NCBI GenBank assembly: GCA_010093605.1
Contig: MU004195.1
Span: forward strand, 496,001-560,000
From: Lophium mytilinum
Taxonomy: Eukaryota
Direction of reading: 5' to 3'
Length of the DNA: 64,000 nucleotides
Positions 1,975 through 51,756 of the stretch are shown one piece after another. Position numbers and translations under genes: made by a program. Below the pieces are notes generated by a model, which was not told where the DNA came from, did no database searches, and saw only the letters and a list, made by a program, of their open reading frames with translations. Position 1 is the stretch's first letter, and every line of letters starts with the position of its first letter.

Positions 1975-3731
1975 CGTAATGCAACTTCAATGCTTGCAAT
2001 GTTCTTGGTATACTTGTAGCCGACATTGAAAGTAGCCGAGTAGAGGAGTGTCTACCTTTACAAGTTCAGTACGCATGCCTCTACTGGATTCAGCACCTTC
2101 AGAAAAGCGGTCGTCAGCTTCACGGCAACGACCAGATTCTCCAGTTTCTGCAAGAACATCTTCTTCATTGGCTCGAAGCTCTTGCCTGGATGGATAAGAT
2201 CTCTGAAGGAATAGACGCCATCACTACTTTGGAGTCTATTGCTCTTGTAAGCCAATGTGAATGCGGTGTGAATCTTCGCTAATTCTGTGATTAGCTTAAA
2301 AATTGTTCCTCTCTTTTGAGTTTCTCTCATGACATCCTACGATTCATCCGCAGTAGCCGCACAACAATTGAGCAAGCTCCCAATCAGACCTATTGCAGCG
2401 CGCTCATTTTTACGCCAGCGTTAAGCACAGTCAGGGAGCAGTTCAAGGATTGCATACCTCAATGGATACAAAGACTACCGAAGGTTGAAGATGACTGGAA
2501 CGCTTTATTACAGACACTCGAGGGCCATGCAGCTCCGGTCAACGCCGTGGCCTTCTCTCACGATAGCAGGCTGCTAGCGTCTGCATCATGTGACAAGACA
2601 GTCAGGCTGTGGGACAGTAGGACAGGAGCAGTCTTACAAACGCTGAAGGGCCATTTGGACTACGTTACTAGTGTAGCGTTCTCTCCAGACAGCAAGCTAC
2701 TGGCATCGGCATCAAGAGACAAGACCATTAGGTTATGGGATACCCAGTCAGGTGGAGAAGTACAGATACTTAGGGACCATTCAGACTGGGTCTGGGCTGT
2801 ATCTTTCTCACCAGATGGAAAGCTACTGGCCTCGGCATCAAGCGATAGAACAGTCAAGCTATGGGATGCCAAGTCACGAGTAGTGTTATGGACGCTTGAT
2901 AGCCATGTAGGCTACGTAAGCGCTGTAGCCTTTTCACCTGACAGCAAGTTACTGGCATCGGCTTCAAGAGACTCTACAATCAAGCTTTGGAACACTCAGT
3001 CAGGAGAAGAACTACGGATGCTCAAGGGCCATTCAGACTGGGTTATGGCTGTGGTGGTCTCATCAGATGGCAAGCTGCTAGCCTCAGCATCAAGCGATGG
3101 GACGATCAAGCTATGGGACATCCAGTCGGCATCAAGCGAAGGGATGGAAAATCTATGGGACACCCAGTCAAGTGAAGCACTACAGACGCTTATTGGTTGT
3201 TCGGACTGGGTCGTGACTATGACATTCTCATTTGACGGCAATCTGCTAGCATAAACATCGAAAATTGGAATGTTTAAGCTATGGGACGTCCAGTCGGGAG
3301 CAACAATACAGACACTCGAGGGCCATTCAGCCCCCGTCACCGCCGTGGCTTTCTCTCCAGATGACAGGCTACTTCTAGCCTCAGCATCACGCGACAAAAC
3401 GGTTAAGTTATGGGACACCTAGTCTGGATTGGCGCTACAAACGTTTGAAGTTGATAATTTTGTTCAGGACCATTCATTCTCCGATGATGGAACCTTCCTC
3501 CAGAGCGATCGAGGACCGTTACATAGCGACTTTCTTTCCAAGGGAACAGTCGTATCACAACCAAGCGTTCCACCTTCTCTCTTTCTTCGCGAACAATGAA
3601 TAAACCATGGCATCGAAAAGATTCCCTGGCTTCCCTCTAAGTATCGGTTAGGCTGCGTTGCTATCTGCGGAAACGTTGTTGCTTTTAGTCATCCATCCGA
3701 TCGAGTATCATTTATAGCATTTAACCTTTGA
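1975..3731 (+). pseudogene. 5'-truncated NACHT-WD40 (HNWD/HET-E-like) NLR pseudogene
   Basis: Post-NACHT linker (LPLQVQYACLYWIQHL...FLQEHLLHWLEALAW), intron near 2247-2293, YCSALIFTP motif, 7 WD40 repeats of ~42 aa and a typical WLPSKYR tail. In-frame stops at 3252 (TAA), 3420 (TAG), 3597 (TGA); no NACHT P-loop upstream. Confidence 0.88.
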
Positions 3732-7559: not shown

Positions 7560-10075
7560 GAACGCTGCGCGCTGCTATGTCTACCTTGCGGATGTTTCCA
7601 AACTCGACAACAAAGCAGATGGCGAAATGACATGGGAAGAGGCCTTCAGGACGAGTCGATGGTTTACCCGAGGCTGGACGCTTCAAGAGCTTATTGCACC
7701 AAGGCTGGTTGACTTCTTCAGCTTGGAGGGCGAGCGACTTGGGAGCAAATTATTGCTTGAGTCCGAGATACAAGAGATTACCGGCATCGCAAAGAATGCT
7801 CTCCGAGGCGATGCATTGTCGAATTTTGGCATCAAAGAGCGGAGGTCCTGGGCAGAGCGTCGCAATACCGGAATTGAAGAGGATGAAGTGTACTGTTGAG
7901 TTGGGATCTTTAATGTCTCCATGGTGCCAAACTATGGGGAGGGAAGAGGTCACGCATTCCGGCGGCTGGAGGAAGAGATTCACAGGTTATACAAGGGTAA
8001 AGTCGTTGGACAGATGTGCTAAATAAAGCCATGGAACTGACCAGCACAGGTGTCGATTTCGAACAATTTGCCATCGGGCTCAACCTTGCGTCATTTCCTG
8101 AAGCTGCACAGTTCGTTGCTAGAGAGAAGGAGCTGTTGAAGATGCATGAGCTGCTTCATGGTCATAGTAGCCGATCGGCAGTCGTCCTTCACGGGCTTGG
8201 AGGAATTGGAAGACTCAGCTGGCGATCGAATACGTCAGACGACACAAGGAGAAATACACGGCGATGTTCTGGCTGAATGCGAATGATGAAGATTCCCTTC
8301 GGCTGAGCTTTCGAGGCATTGCTCAGCAAGTCCTGAAGCGTCATCCTTCGACTGCAGGACTTATGAATGTGGATATGGACGGAGACCTTGATCGAGTAGT
8401 CAGTGCAGTCAAAGCCTGGCTCGATCTCCCGGAAAATACACGTTGGCTGATGGCCTATGACAAATTATGACAATCCCAGGATCTCTAACGATTCCGACTG
8501 CTCGGCCGTGGATGTGCGTCGATATTTACCAGAAAGTGACCACGGCTCGATCATCATCACGACGCGGTCAGCGAGGGTTACCCAAGGTCGACGTCTCCAG
8601 GTTCAGAAGTTGACAGGAACTGAGGACGGCCTCAAGATCTTGTCGAACATGTCTGGAAGGGAGGGCATTGAAAATGGTATGTTATATTGGGATAACCCGA
8701 GTTGAACGGAGCTGATAAGGTAGATCCTGATGCCAAAGCGCTCGTCATGAAGCTAGATGGCCTGCCTCTTGCTCTGTCCACGGCTGGGGCATATCTAGAG
8801 CACGTGACCTTCAGCTTCGCGGAGTATCTTCAGCTATATGAAGCATCATGGCTGAAACTCCAGATGACGAGTCCAATGTTGAGTTCATATGAAGACCGAT
8901 CATTGTACACGACATGGCAGGTCACCTTTGATCAGATTCGAAAACAGAATGCGGCCTCAGCCCAGTTGCTTAAGCTGTGGGCATATTTTGACAAGCAAGA
9001 CGTGTGGTTTGAACCTCTTCAACATGCATGCTCTGCGGACGATAAGTGGATACGGAAGCTTACGGCCCAGGACGATGAGTGGATACGCAAGCTTACTGAG
9101 GACGATTTGAACTTTAACGAGGCAGTTCGACTGCTATGCGTATACGTTCTAGCACATGCAGAACCCTCACTTCGACAGCCGTCCAGGTTCGCTGGGTATA
9201 GTCTGCATAGCTGTGTGCACTCATGGACGATATCTGTATTGAACTGCGAGTGGGACAATAACTTAGCAAGGCTAGCCCTGACTTGCGTGGCATTCGAAGT
9301 TCCTAGCAGGGATGTAGACAAGTGGTGGCGTTTACAGCAGCGGCTCCTTCAACATGCTGCAAGACATGAATATTTTATCGCGGATGGAATCGTGGATACT
9401 AAGGGAATAGAATGGGTGCTGCATAACCTAGGCAGCCTCTACGGCGACCAAGGCAAGCTGGCCGATGCGGAGGCCATGTACACTCGGGCGCTGCAAGGTT
9501 ACAAGGAGGCACTTGGACCAAAGCATACATTAACACTGAAGATGATTAACAACCTAGGCATCGTCTACGTTAAGCAAGGCTTGCTCTACGCTGACCAAGG
9601 CAAGCTGGCCAACGCGGAGGCCATGTACACTCGAGCGCTGGAAGGCTATGAGGAGGCACTTGGACTAAAGCACACGTCGACACTTAATACGGTTCATAAC
9701 CTAGGCATTCTCTACAAGAAGCAAGGCAAGCTGGCCAACGCGGAGGCCATGTATACTCGGGCGCTGCAAGGTTACGAGGAGGCACTCGGCCTTCAACTTG
9801 TGCCATCATACTTACCAGCATTGATAACTATGTGGTCCCTTGGCGACCTCTTCTCGATGATAGGTCGAACAGACTCAGCGAAAGCAATGTACAGTCGGGC
9901 ATTAGCTGGATATACAACGGTCGAAGGACCTTCTTCGGAATCGTGTAGGCAGCTCAAAGATCTACTTCAGGCGTTGCAAGTTGCGTCTAATGAGCCGAAA
10001 GCAGGCCAAGATGAGTCTACAGAGATTGGAGCGCCAAAGTCAAGGTCTCTTGAGCGGAAACATTCCACAAGCTAG
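7560..10075 (+). pseudogene. HET - NB-ARC - TPR NLR pseudogene, 5'-truncated
   Basis: HET C-terminal part (SRWFTRGWTLQELIAP) with in-frame TGA at 7897. 1-nt deletion in Walker A (LHGLGGIG[K]TQLA) near 8210 and +1 frameshift near 8460. GSIIITTR, LDGLPLAL and TPR repeats (LHNLGSLYGDQGKLADAEAMYTRALQG). The 5' end is replaced by an AT-rich patch at ~7420-7560. Confidence 0.88.
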
Positions 10076-25177: not shown

Positions 25178-26987
25178 GTCTCACGGGATATTCTGGAAAG
25201 AATCGCGTAACATTTGGGAAGCATATATGAAAACAAAAAGCGTTCGTGCTGGAGCTTACATCTGGCTCGCGAGAAAATGAGGCAAAGGTTGAGATCGTGC
25301 GGGCGCCAACGCATACATACCAACTTTCTGCACTGTGGTTCTAGCGCTGCGCCTCAGCGGCACGGCTTTCTCTGAGTCCTGACGGAACGAATCAAATGAT
25401 CACAGCGACGAGGCTGGAGTGGGTACACAATACATCAAACATGCCTCGCAAGGCATTTCAGAGAGATCCGGTGAGTGAAGCTGCAGGTTTCGGCGCCGTG
25501 ATTGGTCGGCCTACTTCAGCCCTTGTTCGAATTGCCCAATCAAAGCTTGTGAGCTCGATACTATCTGCAGTGTACCGTGGCAGTGCAATTCAGCCTTGTA
25601 GGCGTTCGACTGCCCGTCCATACCATGGCAATGGGTCACTCAATCAAGATCCAAGATGCAGTAGCCACTGACCAGGAATTAAACCCCACTTTAGACGTGA
25701 GTACCCAAAGACCTCAGCCACCTACCAGTCGTCGCAGATTGATGCATGTCTAGGTTTCTTGGCATGGCCGTTATCACCAAGGCTGTTCCACTGTTAGCCT
25801 AGTGAGATATGAGATGCCACGTGACCTTAGCTGTGCAGTTTGAGGGGTTTAAGAAAAAGCAAATGAACACACTGGATGGCCATACCACGTTCTGCAGCGC
25901 TGGAGTATCTTCATTACCGCCCATGATTGTCTCGATAACTCCTTTCCCCGCACTCACCAAGGTATGTGGACTTAGGCAGACTCGACCTGGTCCAACTAGA
26001 TGACCTTTGGTGCGTTGACTTCCACCATCCTGTTCTCACGTGCGATCTGCACTTCCTACATGCACGGCGGGAACTCCCGCAACTTTAGCTTCAGCTGGAA
26101 GAGCTGAATAATAGCTTGAGCTCTGTAGATCCCACATGATTATGCGGAGAACATGGTGGTGTGGGATAAGACCTCTCTAGATTCAGCCTTCCCGTAAGTC
26201 TCGCCAAAGTCAATCACACCCCTCGAGACCTCCGCATGAAATCCGCACCCGAGCTGTGGAAGCTTTGTGAAAGCGGCTGGCTCAAGATAAGCTTCAATGC
26301 TTGGCCAAGTCTTGGAAGCTTACAGCGGAGCTGAAACCTTGAGAAAGTGCATCCCGCCTCTACGGAATCTTCGTTCTCTGTGCCTAAGTGGCTACTTCGT
26401 GCGGCAGCTGAAATGTCGAAAATGAAATCTAGAATGCGACTTACAGTCACACGACCTCCTGCCGTATCCTCTCGGCATCGGCACTGGAAGCCAGCTGAAG
26501 AGAGCATCTTGCTTTCATGCAAACGAGCGAGTGTCCAGACTAAACGCTGGGCAAGGAGATTCTTCCTATGAAGCTGATTTGCTGCGTCATATTGATCTTT
26601 GTAGTAAGTATATATATCCGTAAGTTAGTAAGCGCCTTCAGACAGCGCCGGAAAATTGGCGGACGTGATAGAGATTCTCGTCTGGCGGGATTCCCTTACG
26701 TGGCTGGCTGAGTGGCTTTGTCATTATAGCATCGTCCAACTATATGCGGCAGGCTTGGAGAGGAGCGGTGTGTACGGCAGGTGCGTGAGGTATATAGACC
26801 TCCTCTTTCCAGGCTACTCTCTTCTCTCTACTCTCCTATTTTCTCCGCTCTATTCTAAGACGCGACACACATACGCTCTATCACCTCTTTAGTGGACCTA
26901 GCAGTGACGTTTCGCTCTTTCGGAGGAGCTCTCCGGTGAACCACTTTTCCTACACACCACTCAAGCTGCCCAAATACGATAGCCACT

Positions 26988-28214
26988 ATGAGCCCTCAAC
27001 AAACACCCGTCAGCGGCACAGGGACTGCTACGAACGCGACGCAGGATTTGCTTAGCAGCTTTTACAACATCGACAACCTGGTCACCGTCAACATCACTCT
27101 TCCTGATGCCACTTGGCAAACCATAAAGAACGCTAGACCTCGCGGCGAGTTTGGATACATCGGCCCACCAGCGCGCTATGACTGGTACCAAGCCACCTCT
27201 GTCACGATATCCGGCACCAAGGTTGCGACACAAGCTACTACCTTTTCCAACGTTGGGATCATCAAGAAGTCCTTTGCCGGATCTTTCAGCACCACGAAAC
27301 CCTCGCTCCGCCTCGACTTCACAAAGTACGACAACAACGAGGCGGGTATCGAAACGTTGATTGGTACGAAAAGTTTGATCTTGAATAACTCGATCCAGGA
27401 TCCGGCCTACATCCGGCAGCCACTTGGCTATGAACTCTTCCGGCAAGCAGGCGTGCCCAACTTCCGCTGCAACTTCGCGAAGGTCATTGTCAATGGTACC
27501 AACATGGGAGTGTTCGTGAACCTCGAGCCATTGAAGAAGCGCTTCATGGAAAATCATTTCGCGGGCAATGACAAGGGCAACGCCTATGAGATCGAGCTTG
27601 ATCAGGATTTCAACGCTTCCACACTTGACTCGGGCCATATGAGCTTTGAAGGCTTCTCAAAGTACGAAGACAAGAAGGACGTCAGACTCGTTGCCGGGCA
27701 GATCGTTTCCGGGGGCTTGGCGGCTGCGCAGCAAGTGGTGGATTTGGATGCTTTCATTCGCTTCTTTGCGATGGAGTCGCTCTTGAAGCACTGGGATGGT
27801 TACACGCAGCAAACGAACAATACCTACGTCTACAACGACAAAAGAGCTGTTGAGAACCCAGCCGTCGCCGATGTGAAGCTTAAGTTCATCCCCTCGGGTA
27901 TCGATCAGATTCTTCAAGAGGACCGCGGCTTTCGCCTGGGGAGTAAGGCGGTGCTTGCTCAGCTAGTCAAGTCTGATGCCAACGCCGCCACCAAGGCGAA
28001 GCTGTTTGCGCAAATCCGCCAGTATGCAAACACGATCTTCAGCCCGACGAACCAGGATACTGTTCTCAAGCCACTGGTAGACCGTATAGTGGCCGTTCTG
28101 ATGAGCGCGGGCGTTAGCTCTAGTGAGGTCGCGGGGCCCATCGATGTCGTCAGAAAGCAACTCAAGCTGGTGAGGGGAGGAGCTTTTCAACTCATTGGAG
28201 AAAGAGAGACGTAG
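26988..28214 (+). CDS. cotH: CotH-family atypical kinase, intronless, no signal peptide
   Basis: NVGIIKKSF.GSFSTTKPSLRLDF, LILNNSIQDPAYIRQ.LGYELFRQAGVP..RCNFAKV.VNG..MGVFVNLE, DLDAFIRFFAME.LL.HWDGY...NN.YVY, FIPSGIDQ. Confidence 0.85.
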   Translation: MSPQQTPVSGTGTATNATQDLLSSFYNIDNLVTVNITLPDATWQTIKNARPRGEFGYIGPPARYDWYQATSVTISGTKVATQATTFSNVGIIKKSFAGSFSTTKPSLRLDFTKYDNNEAGIETLIGTKSLILNNSIQDPAYIRQPLGYELFRQAGVPNFRCNFAKVIVNGTNMGVFVNLEPLKKRFMENHFAGNDKGNAYEIELDQDFNASTLDSGHMSFEGFSKYEDKKDVRLVAGQIVSGGLAAAQQVVDLDAFIRFFAMESLLKHWDGYTQQTNNTYVYNDKRAVENPAVADVKLKFIPSGIDQILQEDRGFRLGSKAVLAQLVKSDANAATKAKLFAQIRQYANTIFSPTNQDTVLKPLVDRIVAVLMSAGVSSSEVAGPIDVVRKQLKLVRGGAFQLIGERET

Positions 28215-31912: not shown

Positions 31913-33727
31913 TCAGCCGATACTTGGGTGGAGGAAATCGAAGTTCTCCTTCAGCTGCGACACGACTCGTTCGAAGACCTCTTTCTGAAATGCCTCATCA
32001 TGGAGGTTGCTCGCCCGACAGTCAAAGTTACATCGGATACATCTCCGCACGGCGTCACTAAACTTATCTCCTGCCTCACTATACAAATCATCGACGATGC
32101 GGTCAGCTGTGTTCCACTGTGTCCTTAGGTCCACGCTGGCATCCCCCGAATCTATCGATCCGTCCTCTGGCTTGTGAAGCTCACAAAGGGACTTTCCATA
32201 CCAGAGTTCTATCAGAAATACTCCAAGGGAGAATAGGGTGGGATTGCGGATGATGCGACTCATTGAAGTGGGTATTTTGCTCGACTGAAATGGTGTTGAT
32301 GTCTGGCTGAAATGCTGCGAGACGAATGGGTGATTGTAAAGTATGCCGCCCGATCTTTCGATGAAGAACACATTCCCCTTTCCCCAATCTTCAAGCCAAG
32401 GGGTCTCATGAAGCTGTAGGACGCTGGAGGATAGGGTAACGGCCAATTGAAGCCGATCCTGACGGGTGAACTTTGGGTCTTGCAAGACCTGTCGAATAGA
32501 CGCAACATTCCATGACTCGGGATTCATTGGCGGATCCTGGTGGGGATATATCAGGATGCCGTACTTCTGCTTCGCATATTCTTCAATAAGGAAAGGCAGG
32601 CAAACATCTCGTTGAGGCTTTTGGAGTGCACTGATGGCTGCGCATAAATTTTGAATTGGCTGAAGGTTCGGATGCGGATCGAGGGCGGCCTTCACAGCTT
32701 TCTTTGCCTGGGCTGCGAATCGAACCCCTTTGGTGCCACCAGCCGGACAAGGCTGCGGTTGAGGTGAAAGTGTCTGCTGGAGTTTGATCCGCACCTCGGC
32801 CTCCTCCCAAATCCAGGGAGACGCGGCGGGAGGGCTGGAGAGTCCAGAATGCGAATGGCTGTATCGAAATAAAACATGAAATGGATCGCGCATGTTCTCA
32901 TTGTCGCTGTCGCTTTCGTCGTCGCTTGGCATATCTTCCATTCGAGACTCTAGGCGGAGATTGACGCTGTGGTCCGCATGGCAAGGGCACTTCCACCCGG
33001 AGCTCAACGCGGAGTAGAAACCTTGAGCGCGATCATGGATGACGTTGAATTTCGGCATGGTCTGGCGGTACGACTTGGCGTTAGCACTGTTGAGGTTTCC
33101 AAGAGAAATGGTCTGAGTGGTCATTCGGTAGAGCCCAAGATTTGCTGCTCGAATCGATTGCATTACATCATCATAGTCGCTTTTCTTAAGGCTGAAGCAC
33201 AGCCTCTTGTAATGCTCTTTGAAAGCGCTGTGATCATAGAACTGAGGCTGATGAGAATTAGAGCGGTCACGTGACGTTTGTTGAGATGTGAGACCTCGGG
33301 ATCAAGTGAGACATCGAAAGTTGAGGGTAAAACATACCTTGCCAGACCCATCAAGCTTCAGTCTCTGCAAGAACTTACTCACAGCTGCGTCCATCGATTC
33401 AATGGTGTCGATGTACGATTCGTAGGTAGTGCCAAGACGGTCCTTCAGTTTCTTCTCAAACTTCGCGTCCTTCCATCGCGTCCCACGTGGATCTTTCAGA
33501 AAGTCCGCCATCTCTCTCGGTTTAACGACACCAATGAGCAGCATGTTGATCGAGTTCAGGCACATCGTGCTTTCACACTTCAGCTCCACGGCAAGGCCCT
33601 TGATCCCTTCTCGGTACTTCCAATACCGTTTGGAGACGGCGATTCCTTTACCGTAGAACTCCAGTCCAGCGAGGATGAGCGGAATCGAGCCGAGGACGAG
33701 CCCCGCTGTCTCAACGCCAGTCACCAT
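31913..33727 (-). CDS. HeLo-like N-terminal + degenerate kinase-like C-terminal (DUF7580-type) protein
   Basis: MVTGVETAGLVLGSIPLILAGLEFY N-terminus; intron 33337-33248; WKCPCHADHSVNLRLE; RLQLAVTLSSSVLQLHETPWL, IRNPTLFSLGVFLIELWYG, DAVRRCIRCNFD. Confidence 0.75.
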
Positions 33728-33962
33728 GATGTTAATGGGATTGTTGAAGGAGGGAAGGAGGTAATTGTCAGACAAGGCTGAGAGAGGAGCTGAAGACGTG
33801 GCGGGTCACGGAAGAAGCGGGGTGCTCCTTTGGCCCCCAAATTTGGAGGCTGAGAAGTGATATCGCAGGCTATCGCTAACGACCATCACCATTCTAAACC
33901 TCACGGAAACTCTCCCCTTCTTCAGGACTCCAGAAGACACAATTCCGTGGCATGCGTGAAAT

Positions 33963-36900
33963 ATGGAAACCCTCCATCTTGCTTCCCAGGTCACCGACTG
34001 TGGACGCGACTTTCGGAGCCTTGGTGAAGCACTGAAGCAAGTTCCCCGTTTCGCGGCGCAAGTGTCACCAGAAAAGATCAACGATGAGTTCGATAGGTTC
34101 AAGATATGGGCTGGAAACGTTGCTGCCCACAGAAAAGGGCGGCGAAGTTTAGAGTATCGCCTTCGCGATGCAGTTCATCTCAAGAATGAAGCAGGCGAGC
34201 TTCTTACAGCCTTGCAAGAATCTCTGAACAACAGTAAGTAATTCTGAGGAATCAAATATATGAAACCATCACTCATGCAATACTAGCTCTGAGCATTGTT
34301 ACTGGAGAGAAAGTACCATGGGATGAGATGTCTGATTCTGATACAGATTCCGGTACTGAAGCTGGTTCTCCGGAGCCCGACACGAGAGCGCTGGAAGATG
34401 AAACGGAGTTGAAGCAATTATTCTCTGGAATACGAGACACGATAAGTTGCCTTTTTCGCCTTTCGATGGCTATCCGAAATCCTGCCCCAAATACCCAATC
34501 CGGCAGTACCATCACTGCGGACAAATCCTACTACGAAGACTACGATATTGAACACGTGAGGGCAAAATTCCACGAGGAGAAGTTCCACAATTGCGACAAA
34601 GTCTTGATGGAACGACTGGGCAGAGCCATCTCAGCTCGGCGTCAGTATTTGAGTTATCGCGAAGAGCATTATAAGAAGTTGGCAAAAGGAGTCGAGAAAA
34701 TTGGATTCGAAGAGGCAAGGACTGAACAAACGGCGAACAGCACTGAAGCATCACCCATGCCAAAACTCCTCGGCACTCCTACAGATGATAATAGATTAGT
34801 TGAGGATAAGCTGGTCGATGACGGAGAAGATGACTTATCTCAATCGTCCCGTGCTACATCAACGAATGCGACGATCCGGGTGCCCTCTTTGCCGAAGGAG
34901 TCATTAGAAAACGAACACTACGAATGTCCCCTTTGTTTCATGATCGTTTCCATACACACGAGACCGGCTTGGAAGTACGGCATTTCCCGATTCTTCGCAA
35001 GACGTGTTGCTGACCGCTCACAGGGAACATGTGTACCGCGACCTTCATCCTTACGCTTGCACGTTCAAGCACTGCAATACAGCCGACCGCCTGTATGATT
35101 CTCGGAGAGCATGGTTCAAGCATGAAATGGAAGCCCACAGAGCTGTATGGCAATGCATAGAGGGGTGTGAGAAGGCGTTTCCTTCAGAAAATGACTTTGT
35201 ACAACATGCCCAGCGAGCACACCCTGAAGTTGCTTCTCAAGAAGCCATAGCGATCTTGAAGAAGACCTCGATACGAAGCGCATACGGGACGGATAAAGCC
35301 AGCTGTCCGATATGTGACCAGTCCATGAGTCTTCGGGCTCTGCAAAAACATTTGGGTCGCCATCAAGAGCAGCTGGCACTGTTCGCACTGCCGGTCAATG
35401 AGGACGACGCTGAAGATGAAGATGATGGCCCAAACTCCACTGAAGAACCAGAGCAGCAAGAATCGGGTGACCAGCGCTTCGAAAGAACTAGCTCAAGTTC
35501 TGAAGATGAAGACGTTGACATACCGGCCGTCCGCGACCATACCACCGATCGATTCAAGACCATAGGGTATGAGTACATTCCGCGCGAGTTCGACGAGGCC
35601 GGCGAGAAGAAAGTGACGGTCACTGGGTATCTGCTGGACGGCCGCGAGTATAAGTGCCGGACATTCTTCACCCTGAACAGAGGCGATAAGCTATTTATGC
35701 TCGCAACGGAGTGTGCTCGCGTATTAGGTTACAGCCACTCCGACTTTCTCTTCAAGGAGAACAGGTCGCTGTACAAAATCATTGCTACACAGGTTGACAA
35801 GGACGACCTTATCCGACAAGAAATACTGCCATACTCGTACCGGTCGCGCCAGATCGCACTTGTGACCGCCCGGTCTATGTTCCGGCAGTTCGGCAGCAGA
35901 CTTGTTTTGAATGGAAGACCTGTCCGCGACGATTATTGGGAGAGCAAGGCTAGAAAGCAAGAATCTGCAGCCGATGGAGCCCCGCTCTCTCCCGTCTCCC
36001 CCGATTCAGGTCCCACAGACCCAAACCTCCCCAAAGTGCCTTCCGGGTGGATGTCTCAATGGGATAATCTGTAGGTCCCTCCTTCCCCTCCTCCGACCAA
36101 CGATTTCCTTCCCCTTCATACCTCAGTGCTATCCACCGCGCATACGTGTTCTTTCACTAGATAATCGCTTACACCCGTTATCTTTACTAGCTACCCCGAA
36201 CACTACTACAGCCAATTCGCTTCCGGCGCCTCCCAGTGGACTATCCCTACCTTCGTCGCGCCTACCGCGCGCCCGGCGCTTCGCCCGCTGGCACACCGGC
36301 CCAGCGTAGGACTAGAACCAAGCGAAGGCCAGACGGAGCGTGACCAAAGCAAGAACAATCGCAGCAACGGTGATGAAACAAGTGTTGAAAAGACAATCGA
36401 AAGCCGCGTTGCTCGCATCAAAGCTCGTGTCGCTGGACTCACTGGTGATGCGAAAGTCGAGCAGGAGGATTTTGATACAGTCTTGGCGGCCGATAATGGC
36501 AAGTTCAGATGGCCACATCTCCCGGAGGCTGGGCGAGATGGGAAGGAGTTTGCGTGTCCGTACTGCTCTATGATTATCAGGGTTGACAGCCAAAGTTGGA
36601 AGTAAGTACCCTACAAACCCCGAATAAGGGATGCCTAATTCTGACCATTTGTTAGAAAGCATGTGTATTCGGACCTTGGGCCTTATATCGCGACTGGAAA
36701 TGCCGAGAAACAAGCTGCAGATGAGGTCACCGAGAGCACGAAGACAGTACACAAGGGAGCTGACACCAAATCTACAACTGAATCCGAGCAGACAGCAGTT
36801 CCAACAGCTGCAGATAATTCTAGAGTCACAGATAAGCTTCAGCATCTCTTCGAACCTTCGCCGAGAGATACGGGAGACTTCGACGATGGCGTTAACAAAT

Positions 36901-37654
36901 CCGCTCCCGCCAGTACGGTTGCTTCAGACCTGCTTGAGCATATTACCGAGCAGGTGCGCGGCCAGCTGCTGAATGACTCGAAGGGAAAGGGCGCTGAAGA
37001 TGGCGCTATCCGTACTCAGGAAGCAGATGACGATTGGGAATTTTCCACTACCACTAAAAAGGACAAGAAGGGCAAGAAAGGGGCTAGTGAAGTTGTTCAT
37101 GAGCCGCTTGTAGAGGTATCACCACCAGCAGAGCCGATTCCAGCTGCAAGAGACAATTCGGAATCCTTCGCTAAGGGCGACGAGGACAAGGGGAAGAAGC
37201 GGCGACATGAGCTCGAGGACGCCGTGAGCAAGGCCCTCAAGATCCACCCTACCTACACCAAAATCCACAAGGATCACCTCTCTATGGACACCCTACTTTA
37301 CTATGAGATTCCGTGGGAATATGACAAGGTTTGTTGCCTTCTTTCCGCAGTATCCCTTCGCTACTACTTTCACTGAATTGTGCTAACCTCTATCGTTAGC
37401 ACGACCACGATTACTTCGTCATCCTGCGCGAACTGGATGAGCGCGACACAGACGTGTTGTTCGAGCACACGCGCCGCCTTCGCTCCAGGGATACTTCTCG
37501 CCTCCTACCGATCGAAGAGCGCACCCGCCACGGCAATCCTGAGTACGCGTGGGTGCGGCACAAGGAGCGCCAGCCAAGTAGGAGTCCAGGCCGAAGACTC
37601 AGCTTGCCGACAAGGGCTGTTGGGATCGGGAGTATGCCAGAGAAGAAGAAGTAG
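33963..37654 (+). CDS. Mosaic C2H2 zinc-finger protein with Rsc7/Swp82-like, WW and additional domains (6 exons)
   Basis: RFKIWAGNVAAH..SLEYRLRDA N-terminus; YECPLCF..W|EHVYRDLHPYACTF..C; CPIC..LQKHLGRHQEQLALFALP; Rsc7/Swp82-like block ~35570-35960; WW motif split by an intron (VPSGW..QWD|..YY...SGASQWTIP); second FACPYC..W|KHVYSDLGPY; C-terminal PTYTKIHKDHLS.DTL.YY.IPWEYD..LFEHTRRLR. Confidence 0.75.

Positions 37655-38075: not shown

Positions 38076-38105
<30 letters not shown>
38076..38105. repeat. Poly-C homopolymer (30 nt)
   Basis: Direct count of uninterrupted C. Confidence 0.95.
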
Positions 38106-38107
<2 letters not shown>

Positions 38108-39930
38108 ACTACCACATCCGCCAGATGGCGATGGCGAGGGCGGCGAGGAGCTAGTAGGTGAGTTGGCGGGGGGCCGATAGGAGGGGGTGCGTGGATTCGC
38201 GCATTGTCAGGATGGGTTTGCTGGGTTTGGAGGTGGTGGAGATGGATTATGGTGGTGATGTGGTTTGTGGGGGGAAATAGGTTAGGGTTGAGATGGAAGG
38301 TGTTGGGGTGGGTACAGTTGACGCACTTGAACCGTGGTTGGTGAACTCGAGGTTGAAAATCGACTGCCCTGACGTGCGAGCTTGCACAGTGCTTTATTGG
38401 GGGTCCTTCGATGAGGATTATCGGACCCGAAAATTCTCAAGATATGATATTGCAACCTTGATGAAAAGAACATTTCCCCTGAGTCGGAGCTCATTTGTTG
38501 AGAGTTTGGGGCTTCACAGCCCTCGTCGAAGCGCCGCTGGCAGTGTCACCGTCTGTACAGATTTGTGAGAAGGTACTGTACCTCTGGATGTTTTTGAAAA
38601 TAAATGTCTGATCCTGGGCTGTGTCTTGTAAGCACCAAGCAAAGCCTGGTGGTTTTGAACATCCCGAACGAGAATTCGATGTCTGGTGGCATCGACGTGG
38701 ACGACCTGCACTACAACCAGGAAACGGAGCATAGTTCTTTCGTCCGGGGATCTGAGGGTCTGAAACCTTGTTGAAGGACGCCCCGCAGTGTCGTAACAGA
38801 AGCCAAACTCCTGAGTTCAGCGTGGATTGGATCTAGAGACGAGCAAATTCGATAGAAAGGATAGCAAGAGCTCAGACAAGAACCTCGAACAAAAACCTAA
38901 CGCAGTCGTCCCCGAAGTGCATGCTCTCAAGACGCCGGAAGCCGTAGCGTTCCTCAAACTCCATTAACAACCGATTCGTGAATGCAGCAACCGCAGTCGT
39001 ATCCCCACCTCTCCTCATCCCTTCTACCAGTCCAGCCGCCACGGGGAGGGGTCCAGCATGTCTTTGTGGCCTTGGGCTTGTGGGCGGGCGATTCGACGCA
39101 AGGGTGGTTGGGGGTGGATGCAGGGGGCTTGCTGCAAAAGGGAACTCACCCTGCTCAGTCTCGGCTCAGATGCGCTCAGTCTTGGCTCAGGATGCACAGC
39201 CACAGCTCAGCAAGGATTCAAGAGCGCACCCACTACACTTCCAAGAGATATCAAGGTTAAGCTAATACTAAGGGATAGGGCTCTAGCTAAAATTTCTTAA
39301 AGATTGCTAAGTAGAGGACTGTGGATATACAAAGGTATGTGTAATTGATGATAGCCAGGTGGAGAGACCATGATTTTCATACTGATACTGAAAACTGAGA
39401 AGACCCGGGTTATAGGCAGACGACTACGAGACAGAAGAAGAGGCCGTGTTATCCTGTTCGGTTTCTAATGCGGAGACATAGCTTAGGTGCGGATTTGGGA
39501 TGCATGCATCAGGCAGCAATGACGCGAGTAGCTCTCACCGGTGAAGCAGCGCGTCAGAGAACTAGCCAATAACCTACAAAGGAACACGTGTTACGCAGAT
39601 ACGCTGTCCTTTGCCTTCCAGTTGTTCGGACGGTCGATCGCTTGCAGAGTGCCTAGGCCCTCAGCCTGACTGCGCCTACTGTCGAAAAAGAAACGAACCC
39701 CGTATTATCTCTCAATGCTTGTAATCTATACAACTTGACCAAGGTCTGCATGTGCAAAATATCCTCGTATATCACTTCTCAGTGTTTGAAAAACCTGTCC
39801 GGATCTCTTCTTTCTTTTCTTCAAGGACTAGTTCGCATTGCAAATTATCACTGACCCGTCGTACACTTCTCTACTCCATCTACTCTCGCGTACCTATACA
39901 ATACTGCCCCTAGGCCTACAGCTCCATAAC

Positions 39931-41742
39931 ATGAGTACTCAATTGAATGGCTTATATGCAGAATGCATTCTGCCTCTCAACAAACCAACGATACGAGTCT
40001 TATACCTAAAGCCAGGACATGAAAGCGACGAGATTCAGGCACACTTACGGCTTTTGGATATTGATACGGATCTATCTCCTCAATATGAAAGCTTGTCTTA
40101 TGTCTGGGGAGACCCCGCATTCACTAAACGAGTCATCATCAACGAGCATTTTATCGAAATCAGGAAGAATCTATATGGTGCTCTTCGCCATATCAGGTCC
40201 AAGACAGAGACGTTGATCATTTGGGCGGACGCCATCTGTATAAATCAGTCGGACATGGATGAAAAATCACATCAAGTTGCCCTCATGGCAGAAATCTATC
40301 GTCGGTGTTCGAAAGTATATATATGGCTGGGATTGCCTGAACCTGGCAGCCTCACAGGCGATCCATTTGAGTTCTTGAACCATTTTGTACAGGGGAAACA
40401 CTTTTATGAATTTCCCGGTTTCGATCGCGATGAATCAACTGGATGTTTCACCTGGAAAGAGAATGAAGCCTGTGACAAAATCCTGAACGATTTCCTCCAA
40501 ATCGTCGGAAGTCCATGGTGGACAAGGGCCTGGACTGTTCAAGAATGCCTATTACCAAAAGAGACTGTGATCATGTTTGGAACATGGGCAGTAACATGGG
40601 AATACATCCAAAGAGCTGGTTACATGAAGAATACTCATGGCGATGGTCCAACGAAGTGTTGCGTACAAGCCAATACTGTTTTTAATCCTCATCAGCTGCA
40701 TTTGATTAACGAATGGATGTGGCATCCTTGCTGGGCAGAAGGATATAGGCAGACAATACATGGAAGAAACCCAACGCCACAATGGTTCTACCAAGCCCTA
40801 CTGGCATTCTCAAGTCGACAATGTTCAGACCCTCGCGACAAGATATACTCTCTGCTCTCCTTGGCCACGCACCCAGTTTACCGGGACTTCAAGCCGAATT
40901 ACCGCGACGATCTCCCAACAATATGCACCGATGTATTCACTCGCATGGTTCAAGAAACCGATGGCAGCTTCGATTGTTTCATGGGAGGAGGATTTGGATC
41001 TTCAATGTCGGGTCTTCCATCATGGGTTCGGGATTTCTCGCAAATTAGAGCTGCAGGAGTTATTGCCGGCGAGCAACGAAGGATCTGGTATGCCTCGCTC
41101 TATCGAGCGTCTCTCACGTCACCCGTTCCGGTCCAATGGAACGAAAACAGAGAATTCCATTACAGAGGTACTTACGCAGACACAATCACGGCCGTTGGGC
41201 AACATATGTCTACTTCACATATGTCCACACTAAAACCGAACTTTGGTCCAGTCTTCCGCCAATGGCTTGACCTTTGCCAAGATACAATGGCCACTTGCGA
41301 ACCCCGGGTACTCCGCACCACATTTTCACGTATAATTTGCGGAGATGTGTGCAAAAATGTTGAAGGAGATGCAGAGTTCAGGAGAGCTATTGAAACAGAC
41401 TTTCCCCAAAAGCATACTTGGGATCAGATCATGGACGGTGATATTTGTGCTGCGGATGCACGAGGTTATGGTTGGGGCCTAAACTTTGCCATGTGGGGCA
41501 GATGTTTTTTCACTACTTACTCCAGCAGAATGGGATTATGTCATCCAAACACACGTGCAGGGGATGAAGTGTGGGTTATGAGAGGTGTTCAGGTGCCATT
41601 TGTTGTCCGACCTCTTGAGCACGCTGATGCAGGATGTTCTGGTAGATATTCCCTTGTTGGCGATTGTTTTTTAGATGGCGCTATGGATGGTGAGGTAGAG
41701 GAAAAAGAGAAATCGACGGAACGGCCTATAGTTATGATTTAG
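39931..41742 (+). CDS. HET-domain protein (HET-6-like), intact and intronless
   Basis: IRVLYLKPG, YESLSYVWG, NLYGALRHIR, IWADAICINQSDMDEKSHQVALMAEIY, PWWTRAWTVQE, CSDPRDKIYSLL, LPSWVRDFS, GDEVWV..G..VPFVVRP, YSLVGDCFLDGAMDGE. Confidence 0.92.
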   Translation: MSTQLNGLYAECILPLNKPTIRVLYLKPGHESDEIQAHLRLLDIDTDLSPQYESLSYVWGDPAFTKRVIINEHFIEIRKNLYGALRHIRSKTETLIIWADAICINQSDMDEKSHQVALMAEIYRRCSKVYIWLGLPEPGSLTGDPFEFLNHFVQGKHFYEFPGFDRDESTGCFTWKENEACDKILNDFLQIVGSPWWTRAWTVQECLLPKETVIMFGTWAVTWEYIQRAGYMKNTHGDGPTKCCVQANTVFNPHQLHLINEWMWHPCWAEGYRQTIHGRNPTPQWFYQALLAFSSRQCSDPRDKIYSLLSLATHPVYRDFKPNYRDDLPTICTDVFTRMVQETDGSFDCFMGGGFGSSMSGLPSWVRDFSQIRAAGVIAGEQRRIWYASLYRASLTSPVPVQWNENREFHYRGTYADTITAVGQHMSTSHMSTLKPNFGPVFRQWLDLCQDTMATCEPRVLRTTFSRIICGDVCKNVEGDAEFRRAIETDFPQKHTWDQIMDGDICAADARGYGWGLNFAMWGRCFFTTYSSRMGLCHPNTRAGDEVWVMRGVQVPFVVRPLEHADAGCSGRYSLVGDCFLDGAMDGEVEEKEKSTERPIVMI

Positions 41743-50570: not shown

Positions 50571-50919
50571 TGCACCATCGACTGTACTTCGCGATTTCGG
50601 CCGTCTCCGCTCCGGCACTTGCTACAGCTTTCTCGAAAACGATAGATCGATCGGGAGTGTTTGCCGACGGATACTGACAGAGCGCATCGCTCCACGGCTG
50701 GAGCTACTAGTCCGGCCTAATGGCAGGGCATTACGGCTAGTCCCCTTGCATCTATAGCTATACTGACTAAGCGCTCTAGCAACAAATATAACGTCTTTCT
50801 TACAGCATCTATCTACGATATGCAACCTTTTGTATTGCAGCAACAAAGCAAAACATTCACCGCTTGGTGCACACATTAACCCCATTTCCTGCTCTCCTCT
50901 ACAACCTCAAGCAGCAGAG

Positions 50920-51756
50920 ATGGCAATCAACAACTCGGGAAACCTAGCTTTGCTAATTGATGGCGACAACGTCTCGTCCAAGATCATCGTCGGCCTTATG
51001 GCTGAGATCGCAAACTACGGCACGGCCAGCGTGCGACGCATCTACGGCGACTGGACCAAACCCGACCTCAAGGGCTGGAAAACCCGCCTGCTAGACCACT
51101 CGATACTGCCGATGCAGCAATTCGCATACACCACCGGCAAGAACTCCACCGACGGTGCCATGATCATCGACGCCATGGACCTGATGTACACCGGCCGCTT
51201 CTCCAGCTTCTGTATCGTCTCGAGCGACAGCGACTTCACGCGCCTTGCGGCCCGCATCCGCGAGCAAGGCATCACGGTCTACGGCTTTGGAGAGCGAAAG
51301 ACCAACTCTGCGTTTATTGCGGCCTGCGACAAATTCGTGTACTTCGACGTGCTCAAAGTGCCGGTGTACGAGTCTGAGGAGCCGCTTGCTGCACTTCAAA
51401 AACTCACACTCAGGGCGACTACTACACCTGAACCAACTGCACGACCGTGGGCACTTGCGCGTGTGGAACCGTCGAAAAGGCAGATCGATCAGGCGGCGCT
51501 CGACGGATTGGCAAATGCGGTGAGGAATACCGTTGGCTACGACGAAAATTACGCCAACCTAGCCGAAGTTGGCACATATCTAAGCAAGATCTCGCCCGAC
51601 CTGAACGCGCGCAACTACGGCTATGAGCGCCTTCGGGAATTTGTGCAAGCGTCCGGAATTGTGAACCTGAAGTGGAAGGACATGGGAGACAGTGCTCCGA
51701 TTGCCCTAGTACGTCTCAAAGAAAATCTGGAGAATACTAACTCCCGGACTTCCTAA
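50920..51756 (+). CDS. NYN (LabA/DUF88 PIN-fold) domain + C-terminal OST-HTH/LOTUS protein
   Basis: LALLIDGDN, RRIYGDW, GKNSTDGAMIIDAMD, IVSSDSDFTRLA.RIRE.G..VYGFG, ACDKF; C-terminal LAEVGTYLSKISPDLNARNYGYERLREFV. Intronless. Confidence 0.92.
   Translation: MAINNSGNLALLIDGDNVSSKIIVGLMAEIANYGTASVRRIYGDWTKPDLKGWKTRLLDHSILPMQQFAYTTGKNSTDGAMIIDAMDLMYTGRFSSFCIVSSDSDFTRLAARIREQGITVYGFGERKTNSAFIAACDKFVYFDVLKVPVYESEEPLAALQKLTLRATTTPEPTARPWALARVEPSKRQIDQAALDGLANAVRNTVGYDENYANLAEVGTYLSKISPDLNARNYGYERLREFVQASGIVNLKWKDMGDSAPIALVRLKENLENTNSRTS

Follow-up and report, generated by a model that had tools for sequence, protein, structure and literature searches.

A zinc-finger protein of the fungus Lophium mytilinum contains a captured copy of the Rsc7 winged-helix domain

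In a 64,000-nt stretch of the Lophium mytilinum genome (contig MU004195.1, 496,001-560,000 of the forward strand; termed the window here, and all coordinates below are window positions) a copy of a domain from Rsc7, a subunit of the chromatin remodeller RSC, is fused to an array of C2H2 zinc fingers within a single gene. The 1114-aa translation predicted from its six exons is letter-for-letter that of P0151, deposited at NCBI as 'hypothetical protein BU16DRAFT_565175 [Lophium mytilinum]', to which precomputed Pfam assigns PF26082 (PF26082.1) and PF08624. PF26082 is named zf-C2H2_AcuF in the protein Atlas. We propose that a member of this family gained a 147-aa copy of the N-terminal CRC/winged-helix domain of Rsc7, and that the domain is a cargo of this modular zinc-finger protein with its function outside RSC. 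The odds for this reading are roughly even (about 0.5). The coordinates of all features are collected in Table 1.

The identity of the domain is plain. An open reading frame (ORF; 34944-36074, + strand) contains both the C2H2 finger region and a match to PF08624, CRC_subunit, with an E-value of 1.8e-47 and 161.6 bits (cut-off 25) over profile positions 4-134 of 135; the full P0151 protein scored 159.1 bits. By tblastn no further PF08624 copy was detected in the 64 kb of the window. L. mytilinum also has a canonical Rsc7, P0158 (616 aa; gene BU16DRAFT_365211), which is encoded on a different contig, i.e. the canonical gene has been kept. Residues 486-632 of P0151 align without gaps to residues 104-250 of P0158, with 118 identities in 147 positions (80%), and outside of this block nothing in the 1114 aa matches P0158. 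In the PDB the block matched chain 23fj_T (residues 127-273, E 1.7e-68) and yeast RSC7 (6k15_F, residues 116-250, E 3.2e-35), compared to E 6e-12 for Swp82. Judged by these sequence matches the captured domain is of the RSC (Rsc7) type rather than of the Swp82 type.

The core of the domain was modelled with a predicted local distance difference test score (pLDDT) of at least 95. Foldseek returned weak rows for this model, among them the SMARCB1 winged helix and the SKI Dachshund-homology domain, all with E > 0.001. With the N-terminal winged helix of SMARCB1/INI1 the captured domain would share the fold class (rows 9rn1_M with probability 0.99, root-mean-square deviation 2.9 and 78 columns, 6lth_M, 7y8r_M and 5aj1); unlike SMARCB1 it has N- and C-terminal extensions, and identity was only 16-19%. 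A homology of the CRC and SMARCB1 winged helices is stated in PMC6959994, where the CRC domain of Npl6 is described as a winged-helix homologue and a likely binder of nucleosomal DNA. According to PMC13580576 the N-terminal CRC domains adopt the fold of an extended winged helix, and the subunit is anchored in RSC by a Req/eReq helix outside of the CRC domain, which packs on Sfh1 RPT1/2 and on the Rsc8/Ssr1 SWIRM domain. Homology of P0151 to the canonical protein stops at P0158 residue 250 of 616 and Req/eReq lies outside CRC; therefore, the captured piece is without the known anchor. As far as sequence comparison can tell, only the winged-helix (CRC) part was copied and the RSC-anchoring helix is absent. 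The chimera thus has the 147-aa domain in common with canonical Rsc7/Npl6, a SMARCG-type RSC subunit (P0158, 23fj_T, 6k15_F), and differs by lack of its N-terminal region, the Req/eReq helix and the long C-terminal region. It also does not have the stand-alone architecture, in which the CRC domain is near the N-terminus of a protein of some 550-750 aa (named canonical proteins have about 610-750 aa); in P0151 it is located at aa 486-632 of 1114, behind the finger array.

The finger region and the Rsc7 domain share one unbroken exon, exon 3. An earlier note on this DNA, made from the letters alone, had claimed an Rsc7/Swp82 domain in frame within a zinc-finger gene, with acidic or Pro-rich flanks, a change of the usual GYRDSYLLF to GYSHSDFLF, and had implied a stand-alone parent elsewhere. 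All of this agrees with our data: the peptide is present, an acidic linker precedes and a Pro-rich stretch follows the domain (both read from the translation), GYRDSYLLF is found in 17 of 17 aligned canonical sequences, and P0158 is the stand-alone copy of the same species. The block is also part of a spliced transcript. One public run (X1) contains the stretch in the form of contigs; its label, 'RNA?', is a guess. The X1 contigs skip introns 1, 2, 4 and 5, i.e. four of five, exactly. Contigs which precisely lack GT..AG introns derive, therefore, from spliced RNA. One record of 2594 nt starts upstream of 33700, passes through exons 1-3 and reaches 36023, with no mismatch throughout; it covers the fingers plus the entire Rsc7 domain. 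Depth at the locus was low (5-8). Thus, the objections that the domain is the sole copy of the genome, that the fusion is an assembly chimera or that the block is not transcribed do not hold.

As judged from sequence matches, the gene as a whole is a patchwork from at least three sources. Exons 1-2, 4, 5 and 6 had no match in the local Pfam copy, and the finger array had only weak C2H2 matches there. The PF26082 assignments are from the precomputed Pfam column; local Pfam reported PF26082 for no family member and the model is apparently absent from it. In Foldseek the finger array weakly matched those of CTCF and TFIIIA (E 0.04-1). For aa 1-300 the Atlas listed unnamed clusters only, one of which has PF26082 on 16% of its members. 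Downstream of the Rsc7 domain follows a WW-like motif; in a WW domain two Trp residues are spaced by about 20-23 positions and enclose an aromatic pair, and the second Trp is followed by a Pro. Only two of 379 compared proteins, P0151 and P0043, matched this pattern; the WW domain of P0043 reaches a Pfam E of 1.4e-9, whereas Pfam WW was not detected in P0151 at E <= 0.5. Next comes a second, truncated copy of the host module. In BLASTP, aa 654-826 matched residues about 97-357 of host-family members. This copy has only the first half of the finger signature, its intron (36602-36655) is at the same codon position as intron 2 in the first copy, and it is 29% identical to the first copy and closer to other paralogues. 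P0151 was the only one of 106 signature-bearing proteins compared in which the signature occurs twice. Finally, a C-terminal block (aa 1004-1066) is 45-62% identical in BLASTP to P0286, P0289, P0117, P0272, P0305 and P0110. These relatives have PF26118 in precomputed Pfam; it is not listed for P0151 itself, and local Pfam finds nothing in the block.

The captured copy has diverged faster than canonical domains, yet under constraint. The canonical domain of Lophium is 90-96% identical to those of other Dothideomycetes (n = 7) and 89-93% to those of other classes. Canonical domains differ little from each other (89-96% identity), whereas the captured copy is 77-81% identical to every one of them. 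Among 17 canonical sequences 108 of the 147 columns are invariant. The captured copy is changed at 15 of these 108 and at 14 of the 39 variable columns (Fisher p 0.005), and thus retains 93 of 108 invariant residues. Six of the 15 changes at invariant columns cluster in a single motif, GYRDSYLLFNK, which reads GYSHSDFLFKE (6 of 11 positions). At three columns diagnostic of the class, the captured copy has the Dothideomycete state at two; of three states unique to the canonical Lophium protein it has none. In trees of the Rsc7 domain it was not part of any well-supported clade, and in one of these trees its end branch was 0.17 compared to 0-0.08 for canonical sequences.

For a comparison at the DNA level, metagenome loci provided the canonical Rsc7 coding sequences. 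With NG86 and YN00 the synonymous distance (dS) between the captured block and all 47 distinct canonical loci was saturated, as it was for most canonical pairs; the nonsynonymous distance (dN) was at least 0.11, versus a median of 0.038 among canonical pairs. With dS saturated only dN is of use, not omega, and the capture can be called lineage-specific but not dated. The earlier note had called it recent. This is not borne out: identity to canonical domains is only 77-81%, dS is saturated, and no flanking sequence common to captured and canonical copies was found. The block is intronless, which is uninformative with respect to retroposition because the canonical domain is mostly intronless itself (a single ungapped high-scoring segment pair in 66 of the 76 loci with a match).

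The host family, from Pezizomycotina, evolves fast; its N-terminal module is conserved and the domains that follow vary greatly. Residues 1-480 of P0151 matched 133 proteins at E <= 1e-10; among the matches listed the best had E 5.4e-174 and 61% identity over 94% of the query. This relative is P0268 of Aaosphaeria arxii (PF26082 plus PF26118). It has in common with P0151 the C-terminal block and the plan of an N-terminal module followed by variable cargo. P0151 differs from its relatives as the sole PF08624-bearer of its clade and as the only one with a second, truncated signature. None of the 119 relatives listed besides P0151 has PF08624. Instead, their downstream domains are, according to precomputed Pfam, PF26118, ULD_2, BAG, DnaJ, homeodomain, RRM, Zn_clus, SH3, Myb, TPR, ankyrin and others. 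In Neurospora crassa zf-C2H2_AcuF ranks together with HET among the families with most dispersed copy numbers, as reported in PMC13412767. One family member, P0327, carries as cargo a SnAC domain (Snf2-ATP coupling, E 8e-8), a second fragment of a SWI/SNF-type remodeller in this family.

Capture in Lophium was an independent event. Exon 3 retrieved 233 cluster representatives at E <= 1e-30 from the whole protein library, and 14 of 138 compared proteins with the finger core also carry an Rsc7 domain. Phylogenetic trees were calculated from the host module. In a quick tree with all 138 rows the smallest well-supported clade with P0151 had 49 rows (SH-aLRT 100), in a careful tree with 56 rows, hand-picked from the 138 to sample the clades, it had 26 (100/99); in both, one protein of the clade was an Rsc7-bearer. 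The Rsc7 label in the careful tree needs four changes, gains or losses, each forced by well-supported branches, and none of 200 bootstrap trees could do with a single change. With P0151 as the sole Rsc7-bearer of a well-supported clade and at least four forced changes, the capture is, therefore, independent and lineage-specific. The quick tree also contains one older clade of eight finger-plus-Rsc7 proteins. No protein of 191-2000 aa matched exon 3 closely over its two halves; the best matches, one in each of two length classes, had 40% identity with a coverage of 89% and 32% identity with a coverage of 93%. Among 5.8 billion proteins no close orthologue of the chimera was found.

Similar fusions were predicted elsewhere. 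All architectures given here are gene predictions as deposited. The Rsc7 domain occurs together with DUF7708 and NACHT (P0042), with SesA (P0048), and with KilA-N and HET (P0053); further predicted partners are HMA, the AMPK carbohydrate-binding module, RRM, PHD, C2H2, Zn_clus, WW, SH3 and a response-regulator receiver domain. The metagenome locus L004 contains a fragment of 1053 bp whose DNA matches the canonical Rsc7 gene of another locus (L001:2382-3434) at 95.7% identity. Some 2 kb upstream of this fragment lies a further finger gene of the PF26082 type, with annexin repeats and a GATA finger. The order in L004:84-4738 (+) is AcuF-like finger region, annexin repeats, GATA finger and Rsc7 fragment, followed by a PNGase-like gene (Transglut_core, Rad4). 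Three long ORFs are in one frame here with single stop codons between them, and the database gene call P0007 (500 aa) has the fragment as a separate gene. From its sequence this looks like a very young Rsc7 copy beside a PF26082 gene. With respect to repeat-induced point mutation, 22 of 34 L004-derived changes were G>A or C>T, and only 6 of these 22 were in a CpA/TpG context. Extra Rsc7-domain copies seem to be common beyond the Lophium genome. The Dothideomycete Zopfia rhizophila has two PF08624 proteins, P0432 and P0169, of 539 and 677 aa. A literature search found no description of the fusion or of repeated capture of the Rsc7 winged helix; among the papers searched, PF08624/CRC_subunit is mentioned in one, on SWI/SNF subunits, and PF26082 in one, a pangenome survey. 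That similar pick-ups happened several times in related fungi hints at a role in targeting or sensing.

Taken alone, the chimera is one lineage-specific domain-shuffling event in a fungus. As an entry point it leads to a winged helix of an essential and very slowly evolving RSC subunit that was copied repeatedly and independently; the copies are found in a single zinc-finger family of rapid evolution and in predicted proteins with NACHT, SesA and HET domains.

What might the captured domain do? The copied part would be the winged helix which is placed beside nucleosomal DNA in published structures. Because the Req/eReq anchoring helix is absent, the chimeric protein is most likely not seated in RSC. 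The domain probably provides the zinc-finger platform with an additional cargo that binds nucleosomes, DNA or a ligand; it would then work outside RSC and contact chromatin. If the captures serve to target chromatin, the Rsc7 winged helix would be a transferable module which binds nucleosomes or DNA also outside of RSC.

Several points weigh against this proposal. The absence of Req/eReq is derived from a published description and from the end of homology at residue 250. With 6 of 11 motif residues changed the original binding surface could be lost. Saturation of dS leaves room for neutral drift of a young copy. The exon 3-4 junction across intron 3 is not contained in the X1 contigs, which have a gap at 36024-36413, and if intron 3 were retained a stop codon at 36072-36074 would end the product after 669 aa. 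Three points favour splicing of intron 3: no ATG is found in exon 4 ahead of aa 795, the WW-like motif is whole only when the intron is removed, and UniRef names P0151 'WW domain-containing protein'. Lastly, the cargo of the family includes many non-chromatin domains (BAG, DnaJ, ULD_2, HMA, annexin, SH3), which would suit a bait platform no less than a regulator.

Such a bait, or integrated decoy, is the strongest alternative, in our view a rather unlikely one. Here, PF26082 proteins would be a sensor platform devoid of a nucleotide-oligomerization domain (NOD), the N-terminal helical bundle an executor of the MLKL/coiled-coil (CC)/HeLo kind, and the cargo copies of host proteins targeted by effectors, toxins or mycoviruses, with the Rsc7 winged helix as one bait. 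The partners of the Rsc7 domain in P0042, P0048 and P0053 are circumstantial points in favour, and so are the at least four gains or losses forced in the host-family tree, the very recent L004 fragment beside a PF26082 gene, the very diverse cargo with HMA included, and family members which end in TPR or ankyrin repeats of the type seen in NOD-like receptors (NLRs). The neighbours of the gene are in line as well: a DUF7580 gene in head-to-head orientation, a HET gene, and ORFs with NLR-type TPR and with WD40. So is the dispersion of zf-C2H2_AcuF copy numbers alongside HET (PMC13412767). Integrated decoys have been described for plant NLRs (PMC4246468) and proposed in fungal NLRs (PMC12258605). 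Common to these and to the chimera are a copy of a housekeeping domain in a variable, fast-evolving family, a retained parent, and a copy that diverges faster than the parent. Unlike them, P0151 has no NACHT or NB-ARC in Pfam at E <= 0.5. The terms 'CRC', 'Rsc7', 'PF08624', 'AcuF' and 'PF26082' were absent from the 13 of 17 supplementary files of PMC12258605 examined. If the copies are baits they would be a concrete candidate for fungal integrated decoys, which PMC12258605 proposes from domain surveys only.

The executor part of this alternative depends on the N-terminal module. A model was built of the family member P0119, which when aligned with P0151 has 60% identity. This model (mean pLDDT 83) has a helical bundle, mostly with pLDDT > 90, and then the finger array. 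In Foldseek the host module matched nothing in the PDB at E <= 0.001. VIA-align gave for the P0119 bundle Z-values of 11.1 with Sw-5b, 11.0 with Rx CC, 8.9 and 8.3 with MLKL, 8.4 with NRG1 CC-R, 8.3 with AtMLKL3, 8.0 with MLA13 and 7.1 with HET-S HeLo. The alignments to the MLKL N-terminal domain, plant CC/CC-R and HET-S HeLo extend over 98-123 residues; however, all these Z-values are below about 13, and for helical bundles VIA-align matches under this level may be merely a common arrangement. Support from sequence for a four-helix-bundle executor consists of a sub-threshold Pfam HeLo at the N-terminus of 2 of 53 family members (E 6.5e-4 and 1.8e-3; cut-off 23.2 bits). A family profile searched against PDB sequences matched C2H2 fingers and low-complexity regions only, and neither HeLo nor MLKL. 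HeLo-type domains have a Gly-rich hydrophobic first helix, which is presumably missing at the N-terminus of the host module. Hence the modelled likeness to immune four-helix bundles is weak, a lead and not a finding.

Further points speak against a bait. By Pfam P0151 has no NOD and no known death domain, the NACHT, SesA and HET fusions are gene predictions, and many cargo domains are nuclear or bind nucleic acids (homeodomain, GATA, Zn_clus, PHD, RRM). Moreover, we know of no effector that targets Rsc7. Rather unlikely is also a more far-reaching form, in which the PF26082 proteins make up a so far undescribed fungal sensor platform without a NOD, whose MLKL/CC/HeLo-like four-helix bundle and finger array bear interchangeable bait copies of host domains. 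The Rsc7 winged helix would have been recaptured, at least three more times in the family plus in NACHT, SesA and HET proteins, since an antagonist (effector, toxin or mycovirus) targets the nucleosome-binding lobe of RSC.

Alternatively, the chimera may be young or drifting and without a specific function, a by-product of duplication in a region of fast turnover which is transcribed by chance. The patchwork, in which a first host copy, the Rsc7 block, a WW-like motif and part of a second host copy are joined, would fit such a process, and the low RNA-like depth, the long end branch, the disrupted motif that is otherwise invariant and the failure to find a close orthologue in 5.8 billion proteins are compatible with it. 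Yet the frame is open over 1114 codons with five clean introns, the core is predicted to fold, and the changes in the domain avoid invariant columns. We consider this explanation unlikely.

Very unlikely is a role as an alternative or competing RSC subunit, by which the chimera would replace Rsc7 or titrate its partners, and so equip the remodeller with zinc fingers. In its favour, the E-values assign the domain to the RSC paralogue, and other captured copies adjoin chromatin domains (PHD, C2H2, Zn_clus, GATA); but assembly into RSC goes via the Req/eReq helix outside of CRC (PMC13580576), and the homology ends at residue 250 of 616 of the canonical protein. An assembly chimera or a merged gene model, suggested by the exon 3-4 junction without RNA cover and by the length of intron 3 (120 nt compared to 49-71 nt for the other four), is hardly credible. 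For the junction of zinc fingers and Rsc7 it is largely refuted, as both are in the same exon and a spliced contig of independent origin extends over exons 1-3 without mismatch. Against it are also that exon 4 offers no early ATG and that the WW-like motif is whole only after removal of intron 3.

Table 1. Features of the chimeric gene and of its surroundings (window positions).
Feature	Position	Strand	Basis or remark
Whole chimeric gene	33963-37654	+	six exons; product 1114 aa
Exons of the chimeric gene	33963-34233, 34287-34974, 35024-36070, 36191-36601, 36656-37328, 37400-37654	+	flanking frames read
Introns 1-5	34234-34286, 34975-35023, 36071-36190, 36602-36655, 37329-37399	+	all GT..AG
N-terminal helical module of the host family, ~aa 1-290	33963-34885, intron 1 included	+	match to family members
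C2H2 zinc-finger array, zf-C2H2_AcuF type, ~aa 295-450	34898-35414, split by intron 2	+	precomputed PF26082.1
Acidic linker, aa 451-485	35415-35519	+	translation; no homology to canonical Rsc7
Captured Rsc7 CRC / extended winged-helix domain, aa 486-632	35520-35960	+	PF08624, 147 aa
Altered motif GYSHSDFLFKE, aa 555-565	35727-35759	+	canonical GYRDSYLLFNK
WW-like motif, aa 662-688	36048-36248, spans intron 3 (36071-36190)	+	pattern match
Second, truncated host-module copy, ~aa 700-826	36282-36716	+	BLASTP with aa 654-826
C-terminal conserved block, aa 1004-1066	37248-37507, split by intron 5	+	BLASTP
DUF7580 gene, head-to-head neighbour	31913-33805	-	PF24476, E 9.5e-28
HET-domain gene, downstream neighbour	39832-41742	+	PF06985, E 3.2e-29
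NLR-type TPR ORF (TPR_10/TPR_12)	8696-10075	+	Pfam
WD40 ORF	2295-3254	+	Pfam

The window may represent a variable region rich in genes of the non-self-recognition type. HET, TPR_10/TPR_12 and WD40 are domain types common in fungal non-self-recognition genes. About 160 bases lie between the first ORF of the DUF7580 gene and the ATG of the chimera at 33963, and the RNA-like contig continues upstream into this gene. Its first ORF has no Pfam match and opens with a Gly-rich hydrophobic stretch, which we take to be typical of HeLo-like N-termini. Elsewhere in the window are an NYN ribonuclease domain with an OST-HTH/LOTUS domain (50767-51756, +) and a CotH kinase-like ORF (26940-28214, +). Just 3' of the chimeric gene, after a Pro-rich coding-like stretch, is a run of about 25 C at 38076-38100.

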